Assembly: GCA_963790305.1 (NCBI GenBank)
Contig: CAWBOC010000010.1
Coordinates: 288,001 to 352,000, forward strand
DNA length: 64,000 nucleotides
Direction of reading: 5' to 3'
Origin: an uncultured Gemmatimonadaceae bacterium
GTDB lineage: Bacteria > Gemmatimonadota > Gemmatimonadetes > Gemmatimonadales > Gemmatimonadaceae
The notes under the pieces were generated by a model. It saw only the letters and a list, made by a program, of their open reading frames with translations. It searched no databases and was not told the DNA's origin. A program made the translations under genes and the position numbers. Position 1 is the first letter of the stretch. Each line of letters begins with the position of its first letter. Shown here piece by piece: positions 15,071-47,367 of the stretch.

Positions 15071-16216
15071 ATGCACATGCTCGTTCTCGGCGCGGGGCTT
15101 CAAGGCTCCGCGTGCGCTTATGATCTGCTTCAAAATCCCGAGGTCACGGAGGTCCGGCTCGCCGACATCCGCATCGAGCATCTCGCCGATTTCCTGGCTC
15201 CGTACTCGGGAAGCCGGCTGATTCCCACCCATCTGGATGTGCGCGATCACGAAGCCGTCCGCGCGCTCATGCGAGAGAGCGACGCCGCCATGAGCGCCAT
15301 CCCCTACTACTTCAATCTCGATCTCGCCCGCCTGGCTGCTGAAACGGGCACGCACTTCTGCGATCTCGGCGGCAATACGGAGATCGTCTTTCAGCAGAAG
15401 CGACTCGAGGCGAGGGCGCGGGAAAGCGGGTGCACGATCGTCCCCGATTGCGGTGTGGCGCCGGGGATGGTGAACGTCCTCGCGCAGTATGGCATCGAGA
15501 AGCTCGACAAGGTGAAGTCGGTGAAGATCTACGTCGGGGGCCTCCCACAGCATCCCGAGCCCCCGCTCAACTATCAGATCGTGTATTCCCTCGAGGGCGT
15601 GCTCGACTACTACACGACGCTGTCATGGGTGGTACGCGACGGAAAACGCACCCAGGTGAAGGCACTGTCCGAGCGCGAGAAGGTGTCGTTTGCGCAGCCA
15701 GTCGGTGAGCTGGAGGCGTTTCACACCGCGGGCGGCCTCTCGACGATGGCGTTCCGGTACGAGGGAAAGATTCCCACGATGGAGTACAAGACGCTGCGCT
15801 ATCCGGGTCACGCGCACATCATGGAGGCGATTCGCGATCTCGGTCTGCTCGACCTGGCGCCGGTCGACGTGAAGGGAGTGAAGGTCGTGCCGCGCGACCT
15901 GTTCGTGAACGTGGTCGGTCCGCGTCTCACCAAGCCGACCGGTCGCGACCTGGTCGCCCTCCGCGTGATCGTGGAAGGGACGAAGGACGGCAAGGCCAAG
16001 CGCGTCGGGTGGGAGCTGCTCGATTTCTACGATGAGGCCCGCGGCATCAGCGCGATGATGCGCACGACGGGATTCTCACTCTCGATTACCGGCCAGATGC
16101 AGGTGCGCGGCGAGATCACGCCGCCCGGTGTGTGGACGCCTGACGAGTGCGTGCCCGCCGCCCGGTATGTTGCGGAGCTGGAGCGGCGAGGAGTGCATGT
16201 GCGTGAGGTGAGTTAG
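15071..16216 (+). CDS. Saccharopine dehydrogenase / lysine 6-dehydrogenase family
   Basis: LGAGLQG, DLGGN, DCGVAPG, YKTLRYPGH and AMMRTTG. Confidence 0.88.
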   Translation: MHMLVLGAGLQGSACAYDLLQNPEVTEVRLADIRIEHLADFLAPYSGSRLIPTHLDVRDHEAVRALMRESDAAMSAIPYYFNLDLARLAAETGTHFCDLGGNTEIVFQQKRLEARARESGCTIVPDCGVAPGMVNVLAQYGIEKLDKVKSVKIYVGGLPQHPEPPLNYQIVYSLEGVLDYYTTLSWVVRDGKRTQVKALSEREKVSFAQPVGELEAFHTAGGLSTMAFRYEGKIPTMEYKTLRYPGHAHIMEAIRDLGLLDLAPVDVKGVKVVPRDLFVNVVGPRLTKPTGRDLVALRVIVEGTKDGKAKRVGWELLDFYDEARGISAMMRTTGFSLSITGQMQVRGEITPPGVWTPDECVPAARYVAELERRGVHVREVS

Positions 16217-16357
16217 GGGTCAGGGGTCAGGAGTCAGGGGTCAGGGGTGGAAAGGCGGCGCGGCTTCGCCGCTGCCGCCTCATTCTGATGAGCAAACGGC
16301 AGCGCTGTTGCGCTGCCGTTTGCCTTTCCACCCCTGACCCCTGACTCCTGACCCCTA
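16214..16357. mobile_element. TA-bounded (TCAGGRG)n-armed element with branched core, copy A
   Basis: TAGGG...CCCTA ends, 4 and 3 heptamer units, and a three-hairpin core containing CTCATTCTGATGAG. Mobility is inferred. Confidence 0.7.
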
Positions 16358-18055
16358 GTCTCTTACCCACGACGCGAGCGTCGCGCCCATGGCGTCGATC
16401 GTCTCCTTCGCCTTGTTCAGATCGCCGCCGTTGTAGATGAAGGCGAATCCGAGCACCTCGCCGCTCTCCGCGGTCACGTAGCCGCCGAGCGAGATCACGG
16501 TATTGGTGGTCCCGGTCTTCGCGTGCAGGTTGCCCTGCGCGGGCGTGAGACGCATCCGGTGTCGCAGCAGCTCCGACTCACCTGCTACCGGCAGCGAGGT
16601 GTGGAAGACGTCCGACCATGGGGCGCGGTGCGAGTAGTCGAGCAGCTGAATCAGCGCACGCGGAGTGACGCGATCGAGGACTGACAGGCCGCTGCCGTCC
16701 GCCGCGTATACCGATCCGGGCGCGGCGCCCACCTTCTGCGTCATGAAGCGCTGAAGGAGACTATTGCCGCTTTCCACCGTCCCCGGGCCTCCGTTCGACG
16801 AGCGCGCTGCATTGCGGAAGATCAGCTCGGCGTAATGGTTCACGCTCTCGCGATTCATCACCGAGAGGAGCCGCGCGAGCGGCGGCGATGGGAGCGAGGC
16901 GACCACGGCGGCCGTGTCCGACGTTTCCCCGAGACGCGTCTGGCCGGCGATCGTAATGCCCTGCGTTTCGAGCGCGCGACGGAAGGCGCCAGCCGTGAAC
17001 CTCGCGGGATCCTCCACGACGATCTGGTACCGGCGCGTTCCCGCGCGGGCACCGATCCAGCCGCGCACCTCGATGGTCCCGTCGTCCAGCGTGCGAACGA
17101 TCACGCGCGCGGCGCGGCTGCCCGCGACGGTGCGCACCTTGTTGGCGAGCGGGAGCTCGGTCGCAGGATCGAGAACGACTTGCGCCGGCTGCTTGGAGCT
17201 CGCGCCAGGCTGCACGACGATCCAGAGCAGGTTCTCGTTGAGCGAGAGCGCCGAGACGCGGGCGGCGTACCCCGCATGCAGGTAGCGGCGCTGCCATCCA
17301 TCTGGGATGCGACGCTGATCGAAGGCGCTTGCGTCGGCGATGAGATCGCCCGACACCCGCTTGATGCCCTTCGACGCCACCAGTTGCGCGAGGAGCTCGA
17401 CTGGCGCCGCCGGACCACCCTGAAGGAATCGGCTGGAGAGCGCGGGATCTCCGTCCCCCCGCATGACGAGATTGCCCTCGAGCGTCCCGTCCGGGGTCAC
17501 GACGCCATCGCGAAGCACGTCCGTGCTGAACTGGTGGTCGGGCCCGAACTGCTCGAGCGCCAGCGCCGCCGTGAACAGCTTCATGTTGGACGCCGGCGAC
17601 AGCAGCAGGTCGGGGTTCACCGAGTACAGCGTGTCTCCGCGCGTGAGCGACACGACCATCACGCCCCAGCGGCCGTTGCGAACGCGGGCCCCCAGCATGG
17701 TCCCGAGGTCCGAGGAGAGGGCAAGCGCGCCCTTGGGCGTCGTGTGGCGAAGTGGCGGAGTCGCGGGCCGCCGCACACGTCGGACACGCCGGCGCGACCG
17801 CTGACGCCCTCGCTGCTGCGGCGGGTCGACGGACCGCACGGCCGGCGGGGACGCCGGCGCAGCGGGAGCCGCGACGCCGTCGCCTTCCTGAGCAGGAAGC
17901 GCGATCGCCGTGCTCTCGAGCGCAATAACGAGCAGCACCCAGCGGGAAGCCAGGATGCGATGACGTGCAGATCGAAGCAGGCTCATGAGGCTACCAAAGG
18001 CAACTCGCATTCCACGCCGGCCGTTAAGAGCCAACGCTTTGCGAATCAATGACAT
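16355..18055 (-). CDS. dacB: D-alanyl-D-alanine carboxypeptidase/endopeptidase (PBP4, peptidase S13)
   Basis: PASNMK (SxxK), SVN (SxN), DGSGLS and AKTGT. The start may instead be 17986. Confidence 0.92.
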   Translation of the reverse strand: MSLIRKALALNGRRGMRVAFGSLMSLLRSARHRILASRWVLLVIALESTAIALPAQEGDGVAAPAAPASPPAVRSVDPPQQRGRQRSRRRVRRVRRPATPPLRHTTPKGALALSSDLGTMLGARVRNGRWGVMVVSLTRGDTLYSVNPDLLLSPASNMKLFTAALALEQFGPDHQFSTDVLRDGVVTPDGTLEGNLVMRGDGDPALSSRFLQGGPAAPVELLAQLVASKGIKRVSGDLIADASAFDQRRIPDGWQRRYLHAGYAARVSALSLNENLLWIVVQPGASSKQPAQVVLDPATELPLANKVRTVAGSRAARVIVRTLDDGTIEVRGWIGARAGTRRYQIVVEDPARFTAGAFRRALETQGITIAGQTRLGETSDTAAVVASLPSPPLARLLSVMNRESVNHYAELIFRNAARSSNGGPGTVESGNSLLQRFMTQKVGAAPGSVYAADGSGLSVLDRVTPRALIQLLDYSHRAPWSDVFHTSLPVAGESELLRHRMRLTPAQGNLHAKTGTTNTVISLGGYVTAESGEVLGFAFIYNGGDLNKAKETIDAMGATLASWVRD

Positions 18056-18129
18056 GAGGGAGGTGGCGGGGCGGCGCGGTGCCCCTTGAGATGTAACGAG
18101 TGAGGCGGGTTCACGTCACCCAAAAGCGA

Positions 18130-18222
18130 CGGATGCGGAAAACGGAATGCGGACCTTTTTGTTCGGAGTCTCTTCGTACGAACGCTTTTACCACAATTCC
18201 GAATTCCGCGTTCCGTATTCGC
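18130..18222. repeat. Degenerate (GAATGCG)n hairpin element
   Basis: CGGATGCGGAAAACGGAATGCGGA pairs with TTCCGAATTCCGCGTTCCGTATTCG. Confidence 0.65.
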
Positions 18223-18228
18223 GGGCGC

Positions 18229-19443
18229 TCAGACCTTCAGAAAGACTCTCTTCCGGTAGAGTACCGCCAGGATCCCAAACCACAGCAGGACGAAACACAC
18301 CGCATACAGCAACGACGCGTTCATCGGCGCCAGCCAGCTCGCGAACGTCGAGTCGTAGGTCGCGCGCTGAAGCGAGACGCTCTGGCCGTCGCGCTCGACC
18401 TTGATGATCGAGCCCATGAGCCGCGCCATCATCCCGGACCCGACGAACGCGAGAATCGGGTTCATGCCGAAGACCACGAACGGCTTCGTCCATCCGGTGA
18501 TTCGCTGGACATCAATGAGCCAAATGCACGTGGCGATCGTGACACACGCCATCCCGGCCGTGAAGAGCACGTACGAGCTGGTCCACAGATTCTTGTTGAT
18601 CGGGAACCACCAGCTCCAGATCAGGCCTGCAACCATCCCGATCGCGCCGATCGCGAACAGCGCGGCGAGGCGCTCCATCAATGGTCTCGGCGACGCAATC
18701 CATCGCCCGGCGAAGACGCCGAGCATCGCGGTGCCGATGGCCGGCAGGGTGGAAAGAATTCCCTCGGGGTCCCACGTCTTCGAGACGCGCCAGAGGTGGG
18801 TGCCGAGCAGCGTGCGATCGAGCCAGGCGGCGATCGAGCCATCCGGTGTGGCGAGCGCGACAGCTCCGAGTGCACCAGTTCCGGGAACGGGGATCAGCGT
18901 CATCACCGCCCAGTACCCCAGCAGCAGCGTCGCCACGATCACCACCTGGGTTCGCGTGCTCGTGCGGAGCGTGAGCAGTCCGGCGGCGATGTATGCGACG
19001 CCGATGCGCTGGAGCACTCCAGGGAAGCGCATCGTCGCCGGGTCGAATCCGTATTGCGGGATGAAGGGGAATCCGGACAGGAGCAGACCGAGCAGAATGA
19101 TGATCCCGCCTCGGCGCAGCACCTGCCTGACGAGCATCCCCTCGTCGTCACCGCGCGTGCGACGGGCGGCCAGCGAGAGGTGCGTGGTGATGCCGACAAT
19201 GAAGAGAAAGAACGGGAAGATGAGATCGGTTGGCGTCCACCCGTGCCACGCCGCGTGCCGCAGCGGTGGGTAGATCGCGCCCCACGTCCCGGGATTGTTG
19301 ACGAGCAGCATTCCCGCGATCGTGAGACCACGAAAGACGTCGAGGGCGACCAGGCGCTCGCGTTGCGCGGGCGGAGTCGTCACCGATGCGTCGTACGCCG
19401 CCGGGGCGGTCGCGCCCGTACGCGGCGGCGCCTCCGACCTCAC
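18229..19443 (-). CDS. Heparan-alpha-glucosaminide N-acetyltransferase-like membrane acyltransferase
   Basis: [38 protein letters not shown] and PINKNLWT. Confidence 0.9.
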
Positions 19444-19943
19444 GACTGCCGCTCCTCCTCGGCGCGGGCGACGTTCCAGCGGGCGGTGTCGCAGACGAAC
19501 TGCACGGCGCGGTGCGCGACCGTGCCCTTGGGCGATCCGCTCAGAAAGTAGCCGCCGAGCCTAACGATGGCGCGGTCGTCGCCGGCGCGGGCGACGCCAC
19601 GGTAGGTGACGAGCAAGGTCGGCATGTCTCCGTAGTCCTCGGCGATAGAATCCAGACGCGCCAGAACGCGCCGCCGCAACGTCGTGTCGGCGGGGAAGAC
19701 GTACGTCGGACCGTAGTTCTGCAGACGCGCTTCCGCTCGACTCGGCAGGGCGGAATCGGTGCCCGACGCGATGAGGAATCGCCGGGGCTTGGGTGCGACG
19801 CTCTTGACGTACACATCGACCGCCGGCGCCACGAGCGCCGTGGTCGGGTCGGCACAGGGTCCGAGGAACCGTGCGTTATCGCGCGGCTCCTGTTTGCAGG
19901 CGGTGAGGAGGAGGGCGAGAGCGAGAAGCCGAGGAGTCGTCAT
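19440..19943 (-). CDS. Hypothetical lipoprotein
   Basis: LTAC lipobox; its stop overlaps the next start. Confidence 0.7.
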   Translation of the reverse strand: MTTPRLLALALLLTACKQEPRDNARFLGPCADPTTALVAPAVDVYVKSVAPKPRRFLIASGTDSALPSRAEARLQNYGPTYVFPADTTLRRRVLARLDSIAEDYGDMPTLLVTYRGVARAGDDRAIVRLGGYFLSGSPKGTVAHRAVQFVCDTARWNVARAEEERQS

Positions 19944-20007
19944 GCCGGTGATTGTCGCATGAGGGGTGGGGTTTGTCGAGGCGTGTCTCGAGCACCTTTG
20001 AATGAGC

Positions 20008-20832
20008 CTACCTTGCCTCCTCGACCTTCGCCCACCGGAAGAACATCACCGTCGCCACGCCGATCAGGATGAAGGTGCCCGGGATCCACATGATCAGACC
20101 GCCCACCAGCTGATCTTCGTGCGGCGAGAGCGCCACGATACGTGGCGCGGCCTCGTAGGCGGGATACAGCACTTCATCGGCGTATGTGATCATGAGCCCG
20201 ATCACGTTCATCGGAATCATCAGCAGCAGCACGTACAGCAACCGCATCGCGTGCGAGAGTCGCGGCAGCTCGGGGAGTGGGCTCAGCAGTGGCCACCACA
20301 CCAGCGTTGCCGTCACGAGAAAGAACAGGTGCTGCACGATGTGCACGCCGTGGTGGGCCATCGCCAGGTTGTAGAGCGGCGGAAGGTGCCACGCCAGCAT
20401 GGTGACGTTGAACAGCGCGTAGGCGAGAGCGGGGCGGGTGAGCGCGCGTGCGACGCGCGCGATCGTCGGGGATCGAAGCGCGGGGCGAAGCATCCAGCCC
20501 GGCGTTCCGACGATGAGCAGCGGAACCACGATCATGGTGAGCAGAAGGTGCTGCACCATGTGCGCGGAGAAGAGATAGCTGTCGCTCAGGTCGTGAAGCG
20601 GTCCGTTGAGCGAGAGGAAGAGGAGGGCGAGGCCGGCGAAGAAAGACGAAGGCGCTAAAGGCGCTAGAGGCGCTAAAGGCGCCAGAGGGTCTTCGCCTTT
20701 AGCGCCTCTAGCGCTTCTAGCGCTTCTAGCGCCTCTGACGTAGAGCAGCCCCAGCGCGCCAATCCCGACCACCGTGCTCCAGTGGATGCTGAATCGCGCG
20801 AGATCGAGCGGCGCGTCGGGGTGCAGCAGCAA
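20008..20832 (-). CDS. ctaG: caa3-type cytochrome c oxidase assembly factor, with repeat-derived loop
   Basis: LFSAHMVQHLLL, WHLP and DQLVGGLIMWIPG; at the end of the cta operon. Confidence 0.9.
   Translation of the reverse strand: MLLHPDAPLDLARFSIHWSTVVGIGALGLLYVRGARSARSARGAKGEDPLAPLAPLAPLAPSSFFAGLALLFLSLNGPLHDLSDSYLFSAHMVQHLLLTMIVVPLLIVGTPGWMLRPALRSPTIARVARALTRPALAYALFNVTMLAWHLPPLYNLAMAHHGVHIVQHLFFLVTATLVWWPLLSPLPELPRLSHAMRLLYVLLLMIPMNVIGLMITYADEVLYPAYEAAPRIVALSPHEDQLVGGLIMWIPGTFILIGVATVMFFRWAKVEEAR
20650..20734. repeat. (GGCGCTARA)n hairpin element in-frame within ctaG
   Basis: Four units per arm, encoding GARSARSARGAKGEDPLAPLAPLAPLAP. Confidence 0.85.
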
Positions 20833-20844
20833 CGGGACCCGGCG

Positions 20845-21201
20845 CTAGGCGCGGACGGCGATCTGTCCGAACAGGAAGAGCAGCGCGACGATGACGGTCA
20901 GGGCGATCAACAACGGGAAAACGAACAGCGCCTGGAAGAGCTTGGCGTCGTACTTCAGGTGCATGTAGAAGGCGACGACGATGGCGAACTTCGCCGCCGA
21001 CAGCACGAGCAGCACTGGCACGAACGCCCGTGAGGCGACGAAGCTGGGGATGTAATAGATCCAGACCTCGACGACGGTGACGACGAAGAGGATCAACGCC
21101 ACCCACTTGTACGTCTTCCACGTCGGATGCTTGTGCTCTTCGGCGTGGGCATTGCCGTGCGTGTCGTACGTCGTCTGCGAGTGCGGATGATCGGCAGCCA
21201 T
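20845..21201 (-). CDS. ctaF: Cytochrome c oxidase subunit IV family
   Basis: Three transmembrane helices, KF..V..FYMHLKYD and operon position. Confidence 0.85.
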   Translation of the reverse strand: MAADHPHSQTTYDTHGNAHAEEHKHPTWKTYKWVALILFVVTVVEVWIYYIPSFVASRAFVPVLLVLSAAKFAIVVAFYMHLKYDAKLFQALFVFPLLIALTVIVALLFLFGQIAVRA

Positions 21202-21204
21202 GGG

Positions 21205-21837
21205 TTACTGGATGAGGTAGATGAGCGTGAAGATCGCGATCCAGACGACGTCCACGAAGTGCCAGTAGAGCGCGCACAGATCGACGTTGATCGCATCCGC
21301 CGGCCTGAGGCCGCGCCTGAGATCGATGAAGAGCAGCGTGATCAGCCAGATGACGCCGGCGGTCACGTGCGCCCCGTGGAAGCCGGTGAGGATGAAGAAC
21401 GACGACCCGAAGAGGTTCGTTCGAGGGGTGAGCCCTTCGTGCACGAACGATGTGAACTCGAACGCCTGGAATCCGAGGAAAGTCGCGCCCGCCAGCGCAG
21501 TGGCGGCGAGCCAGATCTTCGAGTATTTGCGGTCTCCGCGAACTACCGACGCATGCGCGAGCACCATGAACAGCGACGACATGAGCAACACGAACGTCGA
21601 CGCCGAGGTGACCGGAATGTCGAGGATGGGGGGTAGCGTCTGACCCGTGGCGGGATTGGTCCACGCCTCGTGCGGAAACGGCCCGACGACCGACCGGCCC
21701 TTGTAGATCAGGTAGGTCGAGATGAGCGAGCCGAAGAACAGACACTCGGACCCGATGAACGCCCAGATGGCGATCTTCCGGTGATCGAGGCCGGTGGTCG
21801 TGTAGTGGTGGCCGTGCTCGTGGGGAATGGCAGTCAT
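21205..21837 (-). CDS. ctaE: Cytochrome c oxidase subunit III
   Basis: FIGSECLFFG, LTGFHGAHV and LYWHFVDVVW. Confidence 0.93.
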   Translation of the reverse strand: MTAIPHEHGHHYTTTGLDHRKIAIWAFIGSECLFFGSLISTYLIYKGRSVVGPFPHEAWTNPATGQTLPPILDIPVTSASTFVLLMSSLFMVLAHASVVRGDRKYSKIWLAATALAGATFLGFQAFEFTSFVHEGLTPRTNLFGSSFFILTGFHGAHVTAGVIWLITLLFIDLRRGLRPADAINVDLCALYWHFVDVVWIAIFTLIYLIQ

Positions 21838-21840
21838 TTT

Positions 21841-21938
21841 CTAAAGGGCGCTAGAGGCGCTAGAGGCGCTAGAGGCGCTAAAGGGAGGGGGCATTCAGCG
21901 CCCAGCGCCTTTAGCGCCTCTAGCGCTTTTAGCGCTAG
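21841..21938. repeat. (GGCGCTARA)n hairpin element filling the ctaD-ctaE gap
   Basis: About 4 units per arm; the ctaD TAG stop lies in the outer unit. Confidence 0.85.
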
Positions 21939-25230: not shown

Positions 25231-25338
25231 CAGGAGTCAGTGGTCAGGAGTCAGGAGTCAGGGAAATTCCACGTCGAGTTTCTTGCTCAATCGCTTGGAA
25301 TTTCCCTCACTCCTGATCCCGGACTCCTGACTCCTCAT
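25231..25338. repeat. (TCAGGAG)n hairpin element with a different core
   Basis: Heptamer arms and an inner GGGAAATTCCA/TGGAATTTCCC stem; overlaps the 3' end of the 25307 gene. Confidence 0.8.
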
Positions 25339-25696
25339 CCGTCTCCACCGCGTGCTGTTCGTACACCTTGTTGGTCGCGATCTCCAGCGCCGAGCGGAGC
25401 TGTCCCACTCCTTCACGAAGGGCCGCAACCTTACGCTGCTCGTTCCCGCCGCGCGTGGCGACGAGGATCAGGCCTGACACCTGGTCGGCGAGAAACGTGT
25501 ACTGAACCTTCAACATTCCGACGAGCGGGGTGGCCGCCCGGCGGAGCTGCTGTCCGAACGGGGCCGTCGGCTGCTGAAGCTTGTGCGCCATCGCCATCTT
25601 TTCGACGATCCCGTGCAGCCGCTGCAGGTGCGTCGCGGCGTCTTCCAGGGTGTGCATCAGCTGCGTGCCAATGCCGGTGAGCTGGGTTCGGGCCAA
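25307..25696 (-). CDS. Hypothetical helical protein
   Basis: TTG start with a GGAGG ribosome-binding site; amphipathic helical composition. Confidence 0.7.
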   Translation of the reverse strand: MARTQLTGIGTQLMHTLEDAATHLQRLHGIVEKMAMAHKLQQPTAPFGQQLRRAATPLVGMLKVQYTFLADQVSGLILVATRGGNEQRKVAALREGVGQLRSALEIATNKVYEQHAVETDEESGVRDQE

Positions 25697-25707
25697 AGGA
25701 CCTCCAG

Positions 25708-25806
25708 CGAATGCGGAATTCGGAATACGGATTCAGGAACGCTACGCGGCTTTCCCGAGAGTGGCTTTCCGGCGTCACGGACTCCGCGTTCCGTATTCCG
25801 CGTTCG
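25708..25806. repeat. (GAATGCG)n hairpin element
   Basis: CGAATGCGGAATTCGGAATACGGA pairs with TCCGCGTTCCGTATTCCGCGTTCG. Confidence 0.8.
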
Positions 25807-25810
25807 AGCC

Positions 25811-26875
25811 CTACTTCACCTTCTCGAGCCTCTTGTTCGGCCGAAACTCACGACCGACCTTCGCCTCGGGCTTTCCTTCTACGAGGACGATGTCAGCGGT
25901 GAAGTCGAAACGGCCGGCGAAGAGCGAGGATCCCACGCCGTAGGCATCCACCGGTACCAGCTGCTCTTCGAAGAATCGGATCTTCTCGGAGGTGAAGCCG
26001 CCGGACACGACGATCTTCACATGACCGAAGCCTTCGGTGTCGAGCGCGTTCCGGACGTTCCACACCAGGTGCGGATTGACCCCCGTCGGCCGGAAGGAGC
26101 CCATCACCGGAATGATCGACTTGTCGACCAGGTTCTCCGACGTGTCGATCCGCACACCCCAGAGGCGGTCGCCGAGGCCCCGCGCGATCTCCAGGCTGGT
26201 CGCCACACAATCGTTGTCATAATCAACGAGCGTGATGATCTGCACTTCGGGATCCATGTACTCGGCGAACTTCTGCGTCGCGAGCGTCGTGTCGCCGTGG
26301 TAGGCGGCGATGAGCGCGTGCGGGACCGTACCAATGCCTGACGAGCCCCACCAGCTGGCCTGCGCGTCGGTGGACACCCCAATGGCACCGGCGATGTGCG
26401 CCGCGTACCCGTCGCCCGTCTGCACCAGCCAGTGATCGTGACGCGCGGGAAAGAACATGACCTGCTTCGGACGCGCCGCCTCGACCACCGCCCGCACGTT
26501 GGTCCCGACGCGCGTCCGGCGCGCGAGAACGCCCAGGTAGAGCGTCTCGAGATGCGCGAAAGCATCATACGGGCCTTCGATCAGCATCACCGTCTCCCAG
26601 GGCTCGATGCGGTCGCCGTCGTACAGGGCAAGCACGTCGAGGGCGCTCCAGTCGTCGGCGCACAGCTTGAGAATGGCGATCGCCTCGTCCATTCCACCGA
26701 GAAACGCCTGGGACTTGCCGAAGACCTGCATCGTCACCCTCGGCGAATGACTGTCCGCGCGCAGGATTTCTCGTGCGCGAACGAAATATTTGTCGGAGTA
26801 GTAGCCCTGCCGCATCTTGTCGACCGGCAGGTTGAACACGGCGGGGTCGAGCCGCTTGCGTCGTCGTGGGGGCAT
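25811..26875 (-). CDS. pncB: Nicotinate phosphoribosyltransferase (type II PRTase, NadC-like fold)
   Basis: YYSDKYF, GTVPHALI, LVDYDND, GVRIDTS, IVVSGG and DAYGVGS. The ORF-track N-terminal extension is repeat-derived. Confidence 0.78.
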   Translation of the reverse strand: MPPRRRKRLDPAVFNLPVDKMRQGYYSDKYFVRAREILRADSHSPRVTMQVFGKSQAFLGGMDEAIAILKLCADDWSALDVLALYDGDRIEPWETVMLIEGPYDAFAHLETLYLGVLARRTRVGTNVRAVVEAARPKQVMFFPARHDHWLVQTGDGYAAHIAGAIGVSTDAQASWWGSSGIGTVPHALIAAYHGDTTLATQKFAEYMDPEVQIITLVDYDNDCVATSLEIARGLGDRLWGVRIDTSENLVDKSIIPVMGSFRPTGVNPHLVWNVRNALDTEGFGHVKIVVSGGFTSEKIRFFEEQLVPVDAYGVGSSLFAGRFDFTADIVLVEGKPEAKVGREFRPNKRLEKVK

Positions 26876-26911
26876 GGACTTTAGAGAAAGAAATGCGCTG
26901 CGGCGCGGTAC

Positions 26912-26975
26912 CGAATGCGGAATGCGGAATGCGGTGGCCTCAATTCCATAATCCGCATTCCGCATTCCGCATTCG
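26912..26975. repeat. (GAATGCG)n hairpin element
   Basis: CGAATGCGGAATGCGGAATGCGG pairs perfectly with CCGCATTCCGCATTCCGCATTCG. Confidence 0.88.
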
Positions 26976-26977
26976 AG

Positions 26978-29900
26978 TCACGGTACGCTCTGCGCCGGGG
27001 CGTCACGGAGTCGAATGATCCCTTCTCTCGCCACGCGCATCTGGTCGCGCAGCTCCGGCGCGGCCTCCTTCCAGATCCTGAGAAACTCCTCGTATGCGGC
27101 GATCGCGCGCTGCCGGTCGCCTAACTGCTCGTAGAGCTGTCCCCGCGCGAGGAAGCTGCGCGCGTACAGAGGCCACCGTGGGTCGGTGCCAAAGGCAAGC
27201 CCGAGGTCCTTCCGTTGGATCGACTCGTACACGTCAGCGGCGCGGCGTAAGTTACCGAGGCGCGCGAAGATCTCGGCCTGCGCGAATCGTGCGAAGCCAG
27301 ACCCGGCATCGCTCACGAGCCGAGCGGAATCGGGGGAGGGAAAGCGTGCCGCGATCGCGGCAGCGCGCGTGGTGTCGCCAGCGTCGAGCGCCATCAAGGC
27401 CTCGACCTCAGGCGGCACTCGCTTGGGCCCCCAGCGGCGCAGCGGCGCCACGTATGAGCTGTCATGGGTCGTCAGGTACGCCAGTAGAGCGAGGCCTCGC
27501 GCCTGTGCTTGAATGTTCGGAGCAGCTCCGGAGGTCATGCGATCGATCGCGGCAATCGAGGAGTCGAGGGTGCGACGGAGCTGCGGGGAGTCCATCCCGA
27601 GCGCGAGACGAGCCATTGCGCGCCACATAGCGGTGATCGACCGGGTCGACACATTCGCGCCAGGAAGCCTCGGCTCCACGCGAGCGACCAGATCGAGCAC
27701 GCGCTCGTGCTCCGGAAGCGCTCCGTGGAATGCGGCGACATTGGCGGCACCCATCAAGCTTGGCAGTCGACGGAAGCCTCCCGAAGCCACCAGCGAGTCT
27801 ACGCCGTAGGTGTCGAGCGCGGTGCGCAGTGTAGCTAGCGCGTCCGGCGAGCCGGCCAACATCTCGAGCGCGGCCAATGAGTACGGCATGTCTGGCGTGC
27901 GCACGTCCGGGCGCTCCATCGTCTGACGCAGCGCAAGCGCCGCGGAGTCGTAGTGGCCGGCGGCGGCATATCCATCGACGACAGCCGTGTGCGCCTGCGG
28001 CGCATCGGGGTCGAGGTAGCGCCAGTGTTTCGCCTGAACGAGCGCCAACTCCCTCGCCCGCGCGCGCGCCGCCTGCACCCGGTCGGCACCGACGGCACGC
28101 GCGGCCGAATCGTTCGGGATGAGAATCACGCTGTCGCCGACGACGACAATGGGGGATCCCGTCGTCCCGCCGATTTGGTACATCGACAGCTTGTGTGCGT
28201 ACGCGAGGTGAAAGGTCGAATCCAGCGCGAGCGTACGGTCGAAGGCGCGCAGCGCGCGCGTCCACTTGCGGCCGAGCTCCGGATCGAGCCCCTGACCTCC
28301 GGTGCCATGATGGAAATACGCGTCGGCCAACCCGTACCACGCTTCGGCATCGGTCGAGTCGCGCACGAGCAGCGACTCGTATCCGCGCTCGGCGGCGCTG
28401 AGGTAAGCCGACGCTCCCTCGACGTTCCCCTGCGTCTGTGCCGCCAGTCCCTGCGTGAGCTGCTGATAGCTCTCAATGAGCGAGCGCTCGCGTTGCGGTA
28501 GCCGTGTCGCGTGCCGTGCCGCCGCGCGCGCCAGGCGGACGTCGCTCGTGTCGCTGATCGTTCGGCGCCATCCTTGTGCGAGCGCGTTCTTGTAGTAGGC
28601 GAGCGCGAACGTGCTGTCCGCTTCCGTCGCGCGCCGGAACGCGCTATCCGCCTCCGCGAGCTGCCACCGGTTGAGCGCCTTCAGTCCATGCAGGTAGGCG
28701 CGATACGCTTCGAGTGACAATGTGGTCGTCCGCGCGAGCTCCGGCCGCATCGGCGGCGCACCGGCGAGGTCGAGAAGGTCACGCGCGACGGCGTCGAAGA
28801 GCGCGCGCGGGTCGGCAGTCACCGGTGCCCGGTGCTCCGCCGGATCGCCCACCCGCTTCCCACTCGCGACATCGTACGCGCGCGCCACGACCATCAAGGA
28901 GTCGCCGACGCGACTCACCTGTCCGAGCACGACCGTCCAGGCGCCCGCTTCACGCGCCATCTCGCGCGCGTCCTCGAGTCCGATGCGCGGCGCATTGTCG
29001 AGGTCGGCGTCGCGCAGCAGATCCAGGCTGCGCTCGTAGTCGACGACGTTGAGGTCGGTCCAGGAGGCAAGGTTGAGCGTCAGCATGTTGACGCTTCCTT
29101 CGCGGAGCCAGGCCAGCGCGGGATCGTTGCCTTGCACCTCGAATGGCGCCACGAAGATCGACTTGCGCCGATCGACGCCGGCCGGCGCTCCGCCGACGCT
29201 GCGAGCGAACCACACCCCGGCCGCGATCAGCGCCACCGCCGCGGTACCGGCCAGGATCGCCAGGCGACGCCGCGCGCGCGGCCCGCGCGCAACGGCCGCA
29301 TGGCCTTCCCTGCGCCCTTGCACTGCGTCACCGAGGGCAACCGCCATCGCTCCGGCGTCCGGCCACCGCTCGTTAGGGTCCTTGGCCACCGCCCGGTCAA
29401 TGGCATGGGCGAGTGCGGGTGGAACACCATCGGCGCGCGTGGCTACCGGCGGCGGGACCTCGGTGATCTGCTTCGCGATGACCGACACCGGGCTCGCGCC
29501 CGAGAACGTCGGCTCGCCGGCGAGCATCTCGTAGCCGATGAGCCCCAGAGAATAGATGTCGCTCCGCCCGTCGAGCTCGCGCTCGCCGGCTGCTTGTTCG
29601 GGACTCATGTACCGGGGCGAGCCGACGATGAGTCCCGTGCCGGTCATCCGGTCGTCGGTAGCCTCGAGCGCGCGGGCGACGCCGAAATCGGTGAGGTGCG
29701 CGGTGCCCGAGCGCGAATCGATGAGCACGTTCTCCGGCTTGATGTCCCGGTGAACCACGCCCTGCGCATGCGCATAGGCGAGCGCCTCGGCGAGGTCCCG
29801 CAGGACGACGGCCGCGCGCGCGGGAGACAGGCGCTTTTCACGGTCGAGCACATCGCGCAGGCTCTCCCCGTCGACGCACCGCATGATGAAGTAGAGCAGG

Positions 29901-30181: not shown

Positions 30182-32056
30182 CTATCGAAGGGGCGCGGCG
30201 GCGGCGCCAGCCATCCGCTCCGGGTCGAGAGCGCGGTCGAGCTCGTCGCGCGTCATGAGACCGCGCTCCATCACGAGCTCGTACACGCTCCGTCCGCTGT
30301 CGAGGGCGGTGCGCGCGACCTCGGTGGCGGTCTCGTAGCCGATCGTGGGGACGAGCGCGGTCACGATCCCGATCGAGTTCTCGACGAACCAGCGCATCCG
30401 GTCCGGATTGGCGGTGATGCCGAGCACGCACCGCTCGCGAAGCACGACGCAGGCGTTGCGAAGCGACTCCATGCCGCGCAGCAGGCGGAACGCGATGATC
30501 GGCTCGAAGACGTTGAGCTGGAGCTGTCCCGCTTCCGCCGCCAGCGTCACCGTCACGTCGCCGCCGATCACATCGAAGCACACCTGATTGACGACCTCGG
30601 GGATCACCGGGTTGACCTTCCCCGGCATGATCGACGAGCCCGGCTGCATCGGTGGCAGATTGATCTCCGCGAGTCCCGCGCGCGGGCCGGACGACAGCAG
30701 CCGAAGGTCGTTGCAGATCTTCGAGAGCTTCACCGCGCTGCGCTTCACGACTCCCGAGAGCTGCACGAACACGCCGGTGTCGGCGGTCGCCTCGACGAGG
30801 TCGGGTGCCGTGATCACGGGAATGCCGCTGATTCGCTCAATGTGCGCGCGCACTGCTTCCGGATAGTGCTCGGGCGCGTTGATGCGCGTTCCGATGGCGG
30901 TCGCCCCCATGTTGATCTCGCGAATCAACGCCTGCGCTTCGCCCAATCGGTCGACGTCTTCGAGGATCGTGTGCCCGAACGCGACGAACTCCTGGCCGAG
31001 GGTCATGGGCACCGCGTCCTGCAGCTGCGTGCGGCCCATCTTGAGCATTCCGGCGAACTCGCGCCCCTTCGTCTTGAACGCGGCCGCCACCTCGGTCAAC
31101 GACTGTTGCAAGCTGGCAATGCTCGCATGAAGCGCGAGCTTCACCGCCGTCGGGTAGACGTCGTTCGTCGACTGCGAGAGGTTGACGTGATTGTTCGGGT
31201 GCACCACGTCGTAGTCGCCGCGACGGCGGCCCATGAGCTCGAGCGCGCGATTGGCGATGACCTCGTTGGCGTTCATGTTCGTCGACGTGCCGGCTCCCCC
31301 CTGAATCATGTCGACGAGAAAGTGCTCGTGATGCCGGCCCGCCCGAACCTCCTGAGCGGCGCGGACGATGACTTCGGCCAACTCCGGCGGCAGGAGACCG
31401 AGATCCTGATTGGCGAGCGCTGCTGCCTCTTTCACGATGGCGAGCGCGTTGATCAGGGTCGGGAACTCGCGCAACGCCACACCAGTGATCGGGAAGTTCT
31501 CCACCGCGCGGAGCGTCTGGATCCCATAGAGCGCGTCGTCCGGAACCTGACGGTCGCCGAGCAGGTCGTGCTCCTCGCGGGTGCGGCCACCGCCGAAGCC
31601 CATGGTGCGCCCACGTCCGACCAGCGTCGCGTCGGCCGCTCGGAGGCGCTCGGAGATCGCCCGCGCGGCCCGCGCGACGAGCGATGCGTACAGCGTGGCG
31701 CGATCCTTCAGGATCTCCTGAATGTCCGCCGCTTCGAGATACGCGAGCTCCGTCCGCTCGAGCGTGCGCGCGCTCGTGCCGTGCGGCGAGTCATCGAGCA
31801 GAATCCCTTCGCCAAGCGCTTCGCCCGCGCCGAGGCTGGCGAGTCGCTCGACTCGGTCGCCGCGGCGTTTTTCGATCGCGACGCTTCCGCTGACGATGAT
31901 GCCGAACAGGTGGCGCGGATCGCCCTCGCGGAAGATCGTTTCATCCGCTTCGAGGGTCCGCTCCCGCATGCGCCGCGAGAGATGCCAGAGGTTTTCCTGC
32001 GGGAACCCGCTGAAGAACGAGAAGGCACGCAGGCGATCGGCCAGGGCAGTCGGCAT
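30182..32056 (-). CDS. aspA: Aspartate ammonia-lyase with N-terminal cyclic-nucleotide-binding-like domain
   Basis: N-terminal IFREGD...GSV...GE; then YGIQTLRA, QGGAGTS, QSTND, GRTQLQDA and GSSIMPGKVNP. Confidence 0.92.
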   Translation of the reverse strand: MPTALADRLRAFSFFSGFPQENLWHLSRRMRERTLEADETIFREGDPRHLFGIIVSGSVAIEKRRGDRVERLASLGAGEALGEGILLDDSPHGTSARTLERTELAYLEAADIQEILKDRATLYASLVARAARAISERLRAADATLVGRGRTMGFGGGRTREEHDLLGDRQVPDDALYGIQTLRAVENFPITGVALREFPTLINALAIVKEAAALANQDLGLLPPELAEVIVRAAQEVRAGRHHEHFLVDMIQGGAGTSTNMNANEVIANRALELMGRRRGDYDVVHPNNHVNLSQSTNDVYPTAVKLALHASIASLQQSLTEVAAAFKTKGREFAGMLKMGRTQLQDAVPMTLGQEFVAFGHTILEDVDRLGEAQALIREINMGATAIGTRINAPEHYPEAVRAHIERISGIPVITAPDLVEATADTGVFVQLSGVVKRSAVKLSKICNDLRLLSSGPRAGLAEINLPPMQPGSSIMPGKVNPVIPEVVNQVCFDVIGGDVTVTLAAEAGQLQLNVFEPIIAFRLLRGMESLRNACVVLRERCVLGITANPDRMRWFVENSIGIVTALVPTIGYETATEVARTALDSGRSVYELVMERGLMTRDELDRALDPERMAGAAAAPLR

Positions 32057-32107: not shown

Positions 32108-32267
32108 TAGGGATCAGGGGTCAGGAGTCAGGGGTCAGGGAAGGAAAGGGGCCGCCGCGCTGCGCGCGTGCGGCCCCTCATCAGAATGAGCGCGGCAGCT
32201 TCGCTGCCGCGCCGTTCCATCCCTGATCCCTGACCCCTGACTCCTGACCCCTGACTCCTGACCCCTA
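32108..32267. mobile_element. TA-bounded (TCAGGRG)n-armed element with branched core, copy B (core inverted)
   Basis: TAGGG...CCCTA ends, 4 and 6 units, and core CTCATCAGAATGAG; lies between divergent genes. Confidence 0.7.
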
Positions 32268-39960: not shown

Positions 39961-39983
39961 GCAGCGTTAGGCTGGCGCCGCCG

Positions 39984-40774: not shown

Positions 40775-40851
40775 GGGTAGTCCTTGTGCAAGGTGTGAGA
40801 AGGCGTCGAGGCGGAAGCATGGGCAATGCGACGGGTAGCGCAGCGCGGGCG

Positions 40852-43770: not shown

Positions 43771-43898
43771 AACGAAGGAGTGGTGGTGCGGGCGGATGGC
43801 GGGGGTCCCGCGACCGGGCGCTCACGTGGCGCCGAACCGCTTTCCGCTGCTCGAAGATATGGCGGAAGCCCTCGGCACGCGATAGTTGCGTCGACGCC

Positions 43899-45029
43899 TC
43901 AGAGGATTCGTGACACCCAGTCGCCAACGAAGTACCCAACCACGGCGACTCCGAGTCCGACGACGAACATGTCCATGCCCGAGCGAATGATCCCGCGGCC
44001 GGTGAAGACCGAGCGCGCGGCACCGACGAGAAAGTGAGAGGCCATCGAGACGATGAACGACAGCCAGATCGCCGGCATGCCTTCCAGGAAGAGGAAGGGA
44101 GCGACCGGGATAGCCGCACCGAAGGCCGTCGCCAGACCGGTGACCCACCCTTCGCGCAGCGGGGATGCGCCCTGCTCGCCGATCTTCAGCTCCTCCTGCA
44201 CCTTCTCATCGAGCATGCGCTTGGGATCCGCCATGACTTCCGTCGCCAGGGCGTGCGCCGCGTCGGCATGCATCCCTTTCGCCTCGTAGATGAGCGCCAG
44301 CTCGTCGCGCTCCACCTCGGGCATGAGCTCGATCTCCTGCCGCTCCATCGAGATCTCGTGCGCGTATACCTCCTGCTCGCTCTTGGCGGCGAGGTATCCG
44401 CTCGAACCCATCGAAAGGGCGTCGGCGATGAGGCCGGCCACACCCGCGACGATGATGGTGGCATGTGCGCTGATCGACGCGGCACCGAGCACGCCGGCGA
44501 CGAGTCCAAAGTTCGCGGTGAGGCCGTCGTTGAATCCGTACACGACGTTTCGGAGGAACCCTCCGGACTCGGCGCGGTGCCACGGTTCGGCGGACTTGCC
44601 CGATATCGCCGCAAGCGTGCTCGCATGCTCCGCGGACTCGCGCGCGAGCACCAGCGCCTCGCTGCCCCCCACCGCCCCGCGTGGTGTCGATTTATGCAGC
44701 GCCAGGTAGTCCTTTACCTCACGTCCCTCTTCAGCCAGCAGCAACGGAAGAAGGAAGTTGGGGCCGAACCGTCGGCCCAGGAACGCGAGGATCCGCGCCC
44801 GCGCACTCGGGCGGTGCCCCGAAGGGGGCTGACCGTTTCGGGTGAGGAGCTCCGCCCAGATCTGGACGTGGCGGTCCTCGACCTCGGCCAGCCGCGCGTA
44901 GATGCCGCGGCGCTTTGGGTCGCTTTCCGAGGAGGCGAGAACGCGATACAGGAAAGCCGCGTCCCCCTCGTCCTGCCAATGGTGCTGGAAATCGTGGAGG
45001 TCCGGCCCAGCGGGGTGCGTGTTGGGCAT
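43899..45029 (-). CDS. VIT1/CCC1 family transporter with N-terminal ferritin-like domain
   Basis: EDRH and ESAEH ExxH-type motifs, VYGFNDGL and ALSMGSSGYL. Confidence 0.88.
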   Translation of the reverse strand: MPNTHPAGPDLHDFQHHWQDEGDAAFLYRVLASSESDPKRRGIYARLAEVEDRHVQIWAELLTRNGQPPSGHRPSARARILAFLGRRFGPNFLLPLLLAEEGREVKDYLALHKSTPRGAVGGSEALVLARESAEHASTLAAISGKSAEPWHRAESGGFLRNVVYGFNDGLTANFGLVAGVLGAASISAHATIIVAGVAGLIADALSMGSSGYLAAKSEQEVYAHEISMERQEIELMPEVERDELALIYEAKGMHADAAHALATEVMADPKRMLDEKVQEELKIGEQGASPLREGWVTGLATAFGAAIPVAPFLFLEGMPAIWLSFIVSMASHFLVGAARSVFTGRGIIRSGMDMFVVGLGVAVVGYFVGDWVSRIL

Positions 45030-45169
45030 GTCGCAATATGCGCTGGACGGGCGGGACGGAGAATGCCTCGGCAGTGCCGAAGGCTCGCGAGAGGCCCGGT
45101 TCCAGCCGACCGTGAACGGGTGGGACCGTTTGGAACGGGCCGGAACGGCTTCCGGCCCGCTCCTAACGC

Positions 45170-45871
45170 CTAACGACCGCCGAATGTGATCGCCAGACCG
45201 ATCACCGTGTCGCCCTCGTCGATGAACACTTTCTGGAATCCGGCGGTCACCCCGAACCCGGCACGACTGATGAGGCCGAGGCCGCCACCGAGCATGGGAC
45301 GGATACCTGTTTCACTCTCGTCACCGGTGATCACGCCCAATCCGACCCCGGGCGTAAGGAAGGGGACGACCTGAAGCCCATCGGCCGCGCCGGCGACCAG
45401 GCTGAAGGGGAGGGAAAGGGAGGCCGACAGCAGGTAGGCATCCGCGCCCTCCGCCGTGGGGATGCCCGCTCCGATCGCCGTCATCATACCGACGCCGAAG
45501 CGTCCGTCGGCCATCGCGCGTTCCACGAGTGGTGTCGTCCAGTCGGCGCCGACCATGATGAGGGCGTCGCAACCGGAGCAGGCCTGGGCACCTGCCGTTA
45601 GGCCCAACCGCCCAGGGCCCGCCGGCAAGTCGGCGGTAACCCCAATGTGGTGAAGTGGGTCATCGTCCTCGCCGATCTGTCCGTATCTCAGCGATACCGC
45701 CCCGCTTGCCGGACGGCCCACTCCCGCGGCGCTCGCCAGTGGAGCGAAGCCGCCCGTTGGGGTGAGGGTGAGAGCTAGATACGCCCAGAAGTCGCCTTCG
45801 CTCTGCGCCTGCAATGGTGTCGCGACCGAGAGTACGGACATCAGGGGGAAGAGCAGGATTGCGCGTCGCAT
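45170..45871 (-). CDS. Hypothetical secreted, beta-barrel-like protein
   Basis: Signal peptide, alternating Gly/hydrophobic strands and a near-terminal Phe. Confidence 0.6.
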   Translation of the reverse strand: MRRAILLFPLMSVLSVATPLQAQSEGDFWAYLALTLTPTGGFAPLASAAGVGRPASGAVSLRYGQIGEDDDPLHHIGVTADLPAGPGRLGLTAGAQACSGCDALIMVGADWTTPLVERAMADGRFGVGMMTAIGAGIPTAEGADAYLLSASLSLPFSLVAGAADGLQVVPFLTPGVGLGVITGDESETGIRPMLGGGLGLISRAGFGVTAGFQKVFIDEGDTVIGLAITFGGR

Positions 45872-46015
45872 ACGACCTCCCGGTGAGAGTAGGCTGCACC
45901 GTACGGTCGCAATGTCGAGATCGCCGGAACGCAAACCCATACGCCAAATGACGTAGCGGTGTCGTAGGCGTACCCCAAGGGAAATCGGTTTGGGCTCCCT
46001 CCCGAAGGCGTTCAG

Positions 46016-46045
46016 GCAACCCTTTCGACGACCCCCCGTGTCTGA
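46016..46045 (+). promoter_or_regulatory. Possible ECF-sigma promoter
   Basis: GCAACC followed about 18 nt later by GTCTGA, upstream of the PDZ gene; resembles the AAC...GTC pattern of ECF promoters. Confidence 0.35.
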
Positions 46046-46079
46046 CCTGACGGAACACGCCAACCTATGAGGTCAAACT

Positions 46080-47222
46080 ATGCTGCTTCGTGAATCCACC
46101 CTGGCTGCGCTCGCGGTCGTGTTGCTCCCCTGGTACGCGTTCGGTCAGGAGCAAGAGCGCGAACGTGAACGTGAGCGCGAGCGGGAACGGACCCCGAGCC
46201 CTCGCGTCTGGTCCATCGGCGGGGAAGACGATGAACGCGCAGTGCTCGGAATCGGCACCTCGAGCGGCGGCGAGCGTGACACGCTCGGTCTGCTCATTAC
46301 CTCCGTCACGTCAGGCGGACCCGCCGAGCAGGCGGGCCTGGAAGAGGGGAACCGGATCGCCGCGGTCAACGGCGTGAAGCTCACGCTGTCCAGCGCCGAT
46401 GCCGGTGAGCCGGACATGTCGGGCATCCTGTCGCGCCGCTTCACGCGGGAGCTTCGCAAGGTGAAGCCGGGTGACAACGTCGAGCTCCGCGTCTACGACG
46501 ACGGGCAGTTCCGCACCGTTCGCGTGAAGACGATTGCCGCCGCCGACCTTCCCACCCGGCGCCGCGTCTCGCGGGCCGATCTCGATGAGCGCCCCGTGCT
46601 CGGCCTGGGTCTGGGTAGCAGTGGCAGCAAGCGCGACACGATCGGCATTTTCGTCAGCAGCGTGATGGAGTCGGGTCCGGCCGAGAAAGCTGGAATCTTC
46701 GAGGGCGATCGGATCGCCGCGATCAATGGGGTCGACGTTCGCGTGAGGTCCGAGGATGCGGGCGACGCGCAGATCGCCGGTGCACGGATTCAGCGCTTCC
46801 GTCGCGAGATCGCGAAGGCGAAGCCCGGCGACAACGTCGAGCTCCGCGTGTGGTCGGACGGCGGGTACAAGACGGTGCGGGTCACCCTGGGCAAGGCGTC
46901 GGATTTTCAGCAGAACCGGCGTGGCATGTCATTCCATTACGAGGGCGATGACGTGTCGTTTCCGCGGGTCCACATAGCGCCAATGCCTCCCATTCCCCCA
47001 ATGCCCCCGATGGGGCCCATGATTCGCGGGGAGTTCGACTTCGATTTCGATTTCGACCATGAAGCGATCGGGGACGCCGCGCGCGAAGCAGTACGCGCGG
47101 TGCGGGTGAATGCCAACGCGATTCGGGCCGCGACCGCCGACGCGCGGTCGATCGCCGTTCGCGCCGCCGCCGAGGCGCGTGCGGCCGCGCGGGCGGGGAT
47201 GTATACGCAGGGGTGGTTTTAG
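46080..47222 (+). CDS. Secreted tandem-PDZ protein
   Basis: Signal peptide and two internally duplicated PDZ domains (LGI...GPAEQAGL..G.RIAAVNG); no protease domain. Confidence 0.85.
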   Translation: MLLRESTLAALAVVLLPWYAFGQEQERERERERERERTPSPRVWSIGGEDDERAVLGIGTSSGGERDTLGLLITSVTSGGPAEQAGLEEGNRIAAVNGVKLTLSSADAGEPDMSGILSRRFTRELRKVKPGDNVELRVYDDGQFRTVRVKTIAAADLPTRRRVSRADLDERPVLGLGLGSSGSKRDTIGIFVSSVMESGPAEKAGIFEGDRIAAINGVDVRVRSEDAGDAQIAGARIQRFRREIAKAKPGDNVELRVWSDGGYKTVRVTLGKASDFQQNRRGMSFHYEGDDVSFPRVHIAPMPPIPPMPPMGPMIRGEFDFDFDFDHEAIGDAAREAVRAVRVNANAIRAATADARSIAVRAAAEARAAARAGMYTQGWF

Positions 47223-47367
47223 GGATCAGGAGTCAGGAGTCAGGGGTCAGGGGTGGAATGCGGCGCGGCTTCGCCGCAGCCGCGTCATCAGATGAGCAAA
47301 CGGCCGCGCAGTGCGCGGCCGTTTGCCTTTCCACCCCTGACCCCTGACTCCTGACTCCTGATCCCTA
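47220..47367. mobile_element. TA-bounded (TCAGGRG)n-armed element with branched core, copy C
   Basis: Perfect 39-bp arms from TAGGGA to TGGAA; the core is closely similar to copy A. Confidence 0.7.

Follow-up and report, generated by a model that had tools for sequence, protein, structure and literature searches.

Three intergenic elements in a 64,000-nucleotide stretch of DNA from an uncultured Gemmatimonadaceae bacterium (GenBank assembly GCA_963790305.1, contig CAWBOC010000010.1, positions 288,001 to 352,000; hereafter the window) raise the question of what they are and what moves them. Each carries a core of small hairpins between inverted arms that are built from tandem repeats of a short word. 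The initial annotation, made from the sequence alone, regarded them as a non-autonomous mobile or structured family served in trans by an IS630/Tc1-mariner or HUH-type enzyme. The first half of that proposal agrees with our results, since covarying stems, a strand-fixed GCGNAGC hairpin, many copies, and filled and empty orthologous sites all point to a non-autonomous, mobile and structured element. As to the second half, we suggest, with a probability of roughly 0.55, that the window copies lack a gene of their own and belong to a replicator system that resembles REPINs but has a partner other than a transposase. The branched core, found in this genus alone, travels as a passenger with three arm words and is exchanged in halves, and the residents of intergenic slots, gene cassettes included, are replaced by hairpins with other words without stacking.

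Structure of the window copies

The three copies, designated A, B and C, lie at the following positions of the window, with the parts given for copy A.

16214..16357, no strand: copy A, complete element, flanked by convergent genes for a saccharopine-dehydrogenase-like protein and an S13 carboxypeptidase
16214..16248, plus strand: left arm of copy A, terminal TAGGGG followed by four TCAGGRG units
16249..16254, plus strand: GGAAAG of copy A, left half of the core-closing stem
16255..16278, minus strand: bulged module of copy A, with a GCGAAGC-type mini-hairpin loop on the minus strand
16279..16292, no strand: central palindrome of copy A, CTCAT-loop-ATGAG, the junction for half-element exchange
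16293..16323, no strand: perfect-stem module of copy A, CAAACGG type, with a free loop
16324..16357, minus strand: CTTTCC and right arm of copy A, three units followed by terminal CCCCTA
32108..32267, no strand: copy B, whole element, between divergent cNMP-binding/fumarate-lyase-family and asparaginase-2 genes
47220..47367, no strand: copy C, whole element, between convergent PDZ-protein and M14 carboxypeptidase genes

The coordinates of the three copies and their TAGGG and CCCTA ends are present in the sequence as first reported, as are the three to six TCAGGRG units per arm (4+3 in A, 4+6 in B and 4+4 in C), the GGAAAG/CTTTCC-type stem that closes around three inner hairpins, the inverted core of copy B, the compensatory replacement of A-T by C-G within the CAAACGG stem, and the GCTTCGC sequence found in all three. 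The central TCAT/ATGA stem stands only in part: it folds in copies A and C, but is unfolded in B, absent from the alignment consensus and energetically marginal. Across the cores of the source genome, substitutions and indels are concentrated in the loop of this stem. DNA folding of copies A, B and C gave z scores of -13 to -20, and none of 200 shuffles equalled them on either strand. In copies A and C, the stop codons of both convergent flanking genes are the terminal TAG triplets of the element. Comparison with Rfam, which had been proposed as a check, found no family in the window at the gathering score, and by E-value just long-stem look-alikes below the cut-off.

The element family in the source genome

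A search of the source genome (G000; 4.31 Mb in 13 contigs, 94% complete, with our own gene calls), also proposed at the outset, found many more copies. The three copies first described are real, but they belong to a family of 82 paired elements genome-wide, formed by 164 of the 190 arms of the family word. These elements have inverted (AGGRRTC)x~4 arms; 23 contain the branched core, 58 are simple stems and one encloses a gene. Four is the commonest number of units per arm (101/164), and unit order is fixed as GGG-GAG-GAG-GAT, the same order as in the left arm of the enclosed gene. All except one of the 82 are intergenic, and 37 of them lie in gaps between convergent genes, a class that comprises 529 of all 3840 gaps; divergent gaps hold three. 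Where an element end faces the 3′ end of a gene, it lies within about 11 nt of the stop codon in 84 of 115 cases.

The gene-enclosing copy (C5:70534-71056, 520 bp) bears on the suggestion that larger copies might hold genes, since it contains a four-helix-bundle ORF (PF05635, E 4e-33; TIGR02436, 112 bits). Its match to the Avd model NF033474 (E 5e-7) is below the cut-off, and the closest solved structure is the Xcc0516 pentamer (2GSC, E 1e-18). All six PF05635 genes of G000 (IVP genes hereafter) and its four GxxExxY genes (TIGR04256) have inverted short-word arms or an adjoining word hairpin, and the words are all different. Most of these cassette words have dispersed hairpin families of their own, with 22-91 inverted pairs by loose patterns; GGGGAGT has just two. 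A second layout occurs at some GxxExxY genes (L359, L360, L361 and L363; G000 C5:1-700), which have complete hairpins on both sides or downstream only.

Turnover of slots between species

We compared orthologous spacers, or slots, across nine genomes of the genus (G000 to G008), eight of which bear elements and one of which (G003) is element-free. Slot A holds an element with the word GGRGTCA in G000 and G004, GGGCCAR in G001 and G006, and a nine-mer in G002 and G007; G005 has one arm each of two words and G003 has no element. The slot A cores of G001 and G006 are mutually inverted. Three genomes have GGRGTCA at slot C and four have GGGCCAR, and slot B is filled in G000, G004, G005 and G008 and empty in G001, G002, G006 and G007. 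A further slot is an example of overwriting inside the window:

5917..6050, no strand: slot with a GCGGAAT-word hairpin in G000; in G001, G002 and G005 it holds a branched-core element, with three different arm words

A collinear G000 site could be assigned to 98 of 141 cores sampled from relatives, corresponding to 62 distinct sites. G000 has a core at 19 of these, a simple GGRGTCA stem at 13, a hairpin of another word family at nine, and nothing at 21 according to a strict detector; several of these last show another family or a stub by eye. Another armed hairpin is thus present in 22 of 43 non-core slots as against 5.4 expected from gap orientation, a comparison in which the simple class was called by pattern and the null by detector, with the null not matched for gap length. 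At L459 the swap is clean, with flanks 92-93% identical. Stacking is rare, as a foreign arm neighbours one of the 82 elements (2.9 expected), and there is one nested case (L185) in which a core lies within the stubs of a hairpin that is still whole in G000.

Gene cassettes take part in this turnover. Eleven of 12 IVP loci of the relatives are collinear with G000, where the corresponding sites comprise two IVP genes with another word, seven gene-less hairpins (five with another word) and two arm stubs. At C7:167.5 kb, G000 has an IVP cassette; in G005 and G008, stubs of these arms enclose a Y1 gene instead:

L233 1399-2145 (G008) and L234 (G005): Y1/RAYT-like gene of 249 aa (PF01797), with 27-bp inverted ends starting GGGGTCGG

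This gene scores 73.5 bits against NF047646 (cut-off 80). The IVP cassette at L071 of G008 is near-identical to that at L061, and G004 and G005 hold a diverged paralogue at the L071 site, a pattern that we read from the sequences as whole-cassette replacement or conversion. The relatives are incomplete short-read assemblies of 80-330 contigs, and at several contig ends of G008 (L088, L111, L112, L113 and L115) inverted symmetry extends 40-50 nt into unique flank, which is probably assembler fold-back.

The branched core and its exchange between arm words

Of the 164 cores that we sampled, 23 came from G000 and 141 from five relatives (all 21 exact matches of G001, and the first 30 of 31-44 in each of the others); 150 could be parsed. 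In 129 cores the perfect-stem module and the bulged module are joined once each. The initial annotation had pointed to GCGAAGC as an exceptionally stable DNA mini-hairpin, and this gains weight from our sample: GCGNAGC, with N variable, is on the outward strand of 126 of 167 bulged modules and on the other strand of none, and it is found in 69 of 107 distinct bulged-module sequences. GCGNAGC is described as an unusually stable mini-hairpin in DNA, with much weaker RNA counterparts (PMC13037366). Covariation, which had been suggested as a test, was seen in 42 cores, where 12 of 25 predicted pairs have changed on both sides and G-T pairs are rare. Together these features fit a DNA hairpin. Covariation in the core is no proof of function, because fold-back correction would give it without selection and the sequences are related.

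Three arm words occur on the same core, namely GGRGTCA, GGGCCAR and the nine-mer GGGATCGAA. Chimeras in which the left word differs from the right make up six of the 150 parsed cores and four of 76 metagenome loci, and one G000 chimera (C3:176.6 kb) carries a fourth word. Within an element, left and right arms match each other more closely than arms of different elements with the same word (p≤0.006 in five of six genomes). The branched core is genus-restricted. The CTCAT-ATGAG motif is enriched in eight of the nine genomes and is at or near background in G003 and in 52 other relatives, a tally that takes in the unpublished genome G015, which enters into no other result; none of 52 records not titled Gemmatimonads and no viral contig contained the core, and the titled carriers are all Gemmatimonadaceae. 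The arm word alone has a wider distribution, with loci in Cyanobacteria, Planctomycetota, Chloroflexota, Acidobacteriota, Bacteroidota and others; at four of 116 such cross-phylum loci the arms surround a four-helix gene.

Arm words and IVP genes

We read 53 of the 55 loci with PF05635 matches in the genus. Periodic, mutually inverted arms were found at 44 of the 53 by a strict test and at eight more by eye; one match was weak. IVP clades follow the arm word, an agreement that is owed partly to shared descent at fixed sites. The ratio of nonsynonymous to synonymous substitutions was 0.04-0.18 in 17 of 25 gene pairs, the others being saturated, and judging by these ratios the IVP gene is under purifying selection.

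Exact matches to a word, counted on both strands, are as a rule numerous in genomes that carry the corresponding gene. For GGGCCAR the five genomes that have the gene show 47-150 matches and the four that lack it 0-1; GGGTCCTCR has 139-231 in three with and 0 in three without, one of the latter being G000, although G004 and G008 are its close kin. For GGGAAGV the counts are 21-39 in two genomes with the gene and 0 in four without, and for GGRGTCA 61-349 with the gene and 67, 65, 3 and 0 without.

Proposed mechanism

By analogy, the pattern would work like a REPIN-RAYT system with a four-helix-bundle protein in the RAYT role. We infer that an IVP homopentamer could read the word array on single-stranded or extruded DNA, at about one word per subunit, the arms having 4-5 words. 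The TRAP protein reads spaced triplets, to which a ring reading four or five tandem words may be likened. The ring would then bring an element copy to another extruded hairpin, and a structure-specific nick, made by a co-resident GxxExxY protein or by a host enzyme, could open the resident hairpin; the assignment of GxxExxY to the PD-(D/E)XK fold follows its Pfam name. Template switching would write one arm and half a core, and fold-back copying would rebuild the second arm, so that chimeras may represent the half-finished state of overwriting. The host presumably tolerates this turnover because any long stem that follows a stop codon does no harm in the RNA, or is of use there. Relatives of IVP are described as homopentameric rings, and Avd is reported to bind structured RNA (PMC4990558; 10.1101/2023.10.23.563531). 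A bolder version holds that IVP, alone or with GxxExxY nucleases, reads the sequence for, and drives, a class of mobile DNA that does without a transposase, in which a pentamer reads a tandem word, overwriting is targeted by structure, and word families compete for fixed slots; this we offer tentatively, as a possibility that falls short of being probable.

Several points weigh against an active role for IVP. G001 and G002 (96% and 81% complete) have 65-67 GGRGTCA matches and no cognate gene was found in them; GCGARCT has 196 matches in G004, where the nearest gene has GCGTACT arms, and 13 in G000; and GGGAGTG has a gene in G000, yet just five matches. Orthologous IVP genes switch arm word between genomes, and the link between gene and word could be passive, the gene being cargo that takes on the current arms. 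Nine related genomes offer few independent contrasts. No gene-bearing copy with a branched core was seen in G000 or among the 53 IVP, 23 GxxExxY and 76 metagenome loci, and we know of no catalytic activity for PF05635. Orientation relative to the replication strand shows no bias (10 versus 9 for cores, 14 versus 23 for simple stems, p 0.19, by a weak skew proxy), and neither does the orientation of cores relative to transcription (4 versus 4). Reuse of slots could reflect selection for a 3′ hairpin instead of targeting. Some inversions and chimeras may be artefacts, because the short-read relatives show contig-end fold-back.

If the partner protein does drive the elements, DNA would be copied and replaced without a known transposase, and by a programmable word-reading ring. 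Two very large families of unknown function would thereby acquire one, and bacterial heptamer repeats and rRNA intervening sequences would become a single phenomenon; neither the heptamer repeats nor the small ORFs of the intervening sequences have so far had an explanation. The genus is a natural experiment in this respect, as several words with candidate genes have been gained or lost over nine genomes and the swaps are visible spacer by spacer.

Alternative explanations

The reading first proposed for the window copies, a miniature inverted-repeat transposable element (MITE) driven by an IS630/Tc1-mariner transposase with TA as the target duplication, draws on the TA at both ends of all three copies, the T found just before the outer unit in 95 of 164 cases, and the single TA at the matching place of the empty slot B in four genomes, where flanks are about 80% identical. 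Filled and empty orthologous sites, for which a search had been recommended, do exist, but the right side of the empty slot B exceeds a clean TA site by 7-9 nt. Only 25 of the 82 elements have TA at both ends, none is flanked beyond its arms by direct repeats of 3-9 bp, and the bases beyond the last unit are RACT or AGCT, which keep the heptamer register and amount to a variant arm unit. Ends that create a stop codon have TA more often (66/115) than other ends do (18/47), and where the core is combined with another arm word, the ends lack TA. Searches of G000 for IS630 (DDE_3, PF13358), Y1/RAYT (PF01797, NF047646) and reverse transcriptase (PF00078) found none, other transposase families not being searched; across the genus these are present in two, three and two of the nine genomes, respectively. 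Three of the four IS630 matches are in the element-free G003, which leaves one of eight element-bearing genomes with any. The TA-MITE reading fails because TA stands at both ends in just 25 of 82 elements and no IS630 or HUH gene was found in G000, and we consider it largely refuted. A HUH tyrosine transposase of the RAYT or TIRYT kind that mobilizes the hairpins in trans, or once mobilized them and was then lost, with IVP and GxxExxY as cargo, seems to us unlikely, although less so. The outermost unit GGGGTCAG fits the TIRtron motif GGGGWSAS (PMC3733652), the Y1 gene of G005 and G008 occupies the slot of a G000 IVP cassette, in-place overwriting has been reported for REPINs (10.1101/2024.10.14.618302), and E. 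coli TnpA-REP is reported to recombine bacterial interspersed mosaic elements in vitro (PMC3333891). Against this, Y1/RAYT genes were not found in G000, G004, G002, G006 and G007, all element-rich; the motif is found in 154 of 188 GGRGTCA arms but in one of 70 GGGCCAR and one of 27 nine-mer arms, and other words lack it; no Y1 gene lies beside the 116 cross-phylum arm loci or 76 core loci; and word abundance follows IVP genes.

The elements might instead be RNA hairpins that the host selects behind stop codons, as RNase III sites, exonuclease barriers or guards against readthrough, with turnover by deletion, slippage and gene conversion in the absence of any dedicated protein. Their concentration between convergent genes and close to stops, the long occupation of slots, and the stem of the related Coxiella intervening sequence, which is described as an RNase III substrate with a seemingly unexpressed protein (PMC4990558), would all be expected from this. 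The swaps, however, involve words without homology, a whole word family is missing from G000 and abundant in close kin, and the ordered unit pattern is copied from the arm of the gene. The loop is of the DNA-type GNA kind with no G-U pairs to speak of, IVP is under purifying selection, and no U-tailed terminator was found on either strand of copy C, the only copy scanned. We therefore doubt this explanation for the families as such; selection on RNA stems by the host may be the reason for slot persistence, not the source of the families. G-quadruplex formation as a common purpose was rejected by inspection because words that co-occur, among them AGATGTC, GAGGCGCTA and GCGGAAT, have no G-tracts. 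A degenerate or dimeric hammerhead ribozyme, suggested by CTGATGAG and GAAA words in the core, is the least credible of the alternatives. CTGATGAG and GGAAAG are the best-conserved core words and Hammerhead_II matches copy C weakly (15.9 bits, E 1.1), but the gathering score is 37. There is no stem I, stem II is unclosed with no C before GAAA, the exact CTCATCWGATGAG is found in just 10 of 23 G000 cores with changes in its CTG part, and CTGATGAG and GGAAAG are halves of palindromic stems.

Other repeats and genes in the window

Further features of the window include a fourth member of the same arm family, the neighbour of copy B, and hairpins of other words; arm words of G000 cassettes appear in nine further spacers.

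25231..25340, no strand: same arm family as copies A to C, a simple stem without the branched core, degenerate
30182-32056, minus strand: gene for a fumarate-lyase-family protein with an N-terminal cyclic-nucleotide-binding domain, neighbour of copy B
4872-5051, 12841-12910 and 55180-55241: hairpins that enclose no gene, with arms of the nine-mer GAGGTCGTC/GAGGTGCTC, which is also the arm word of the IVP gene at C7:228 kb
5917-6050, 25696-25811 and 26875-26978: hairpins with GCGGAAT arms, a word shared with the IVP-like gene at C10:203.5 kb; the first contains, in addition, a conserved inner stem of its own
21837-21935 and 10627-10674: hairpin and single arm, respectively, with the GAGGCGCTA nine-mer, which also forms the arms of the IVP gene at C9:787.8 kb
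619-1336: large spacer containing a perfect period-7 run

Comparison with known systems

By their defining features, the elements are neither TA-MITEs, nor REPINs, nor intervening sequences (IVSs). The 23S rRNA IVS of Coxiella burnetii is described as having an S23p ORF of the same Pfam family, with four helices, in the loop of a long terminal stem and with tandem heptamers before it (PMC4990558). This likeness holds for the gene-bearing copy C5:70534-71056, not for the three window copies. Unlike the IVS, the elements lie outside rRNA, the window copies being between protein genes and without an Rfam match; they fall into several word families that are paralogous, dozens of the copies have no gene, and their ORF is under purifying selection, whereas that of Coxiella is decaying.

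TIRtrons and their TIRYT transposases (Di Nocera 2013, PMC3733652; subclass 2.1, 10.1101/279083) are reported to have GGGGWSAS in inverted ends and moderately abundant dimers of the terminal inverted repeat (TIR), and here too a Y1 gene occupies a shared slot in two relatives. The available text of PMC3733652 does not describe TIRs as tandem words, however, and most of the element-bearing genomes have no TIRYT. No tyrosine transposase was found between these arms; in G000 and at 4/116 cross-phylum loci they enclose just four-helix genes. The heptamer arrays GGGAATC of Xanthomonas and GGGGAYT of Nostoc (Rehm 2015, PMC4692102) resemble ours in having mostly four units and lying near stops, and 70-75 inverted heptamer pairs per genome are reported. 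They were read as G-quadruplexes and, in that account, are unlinked to mobile elements or to a four-helix gene; several of our words have no G-tract suited to a quadruplex, and the slots turn over. Avd of diversity-generating retroelements is described as a homologue that forms a positively charged pentamer and binds structured nucleic acid (10.1101/2023.10.23.563531), but PF00078 reverse transcriptases were found in two of nine genus genomes and not in G000. A separate observation concerns G001:C3 (L235/L228), where Y1-like and reverse transcriptase genes lie <2 kb apart and the downstream repeats have GCCGCGAAGCGGC hairpins like the bulged module.

The open-access literature yielded no paper that joins four-helix-bundle or GxxExxY genes to dispersed repeat-armed hairpins. 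REPIN-RAYT or REPtron systems (Bertels and Rainey) differ from the elements described here in their partner, which is a HUH transposase and not a four-helix-bundle or GxxExxY protein, and in the GTAG/CGTC tag next to their REP palindrome of 20-25 nt, a tag that is absent here, where GGAAAG and CTCAT frame the modules. Arms of 25-40 bp made of tandem 7-9-nt words, and a shared branched core that is swapped between families, are likewise peculiar to our elements; no repeat-flanked RAYT was found in G000, and the Y1 genes of G005 and G008 have their own 27-bp ends. The likenesses are in the organization of the system: a repeat family has one or two genes, which are inherited vertically and bordered by their own repeat; inverted doublets without a gene are numerous and dispersed in extragenic space; and copy number follows the cognate gene, with residents overwritten, the partner here being IVP and the rule having exceptions. 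Orthologous RAYT genes are reported to be flanked by different classes of repetitive extragenic palindromes, or "orthogroups" (Nunvar 2013, PMC3686654), and the REPINs of conserved spacers to be overwritten as the RAYT set changes (REPORTH preprint, 10.1101/2024.10.14.618302). The heptamers of the Coxiella IVS, the inverted heptamer pairs of Xanthomonas and the overwriting of REPINs are thus already in print piecemeal.

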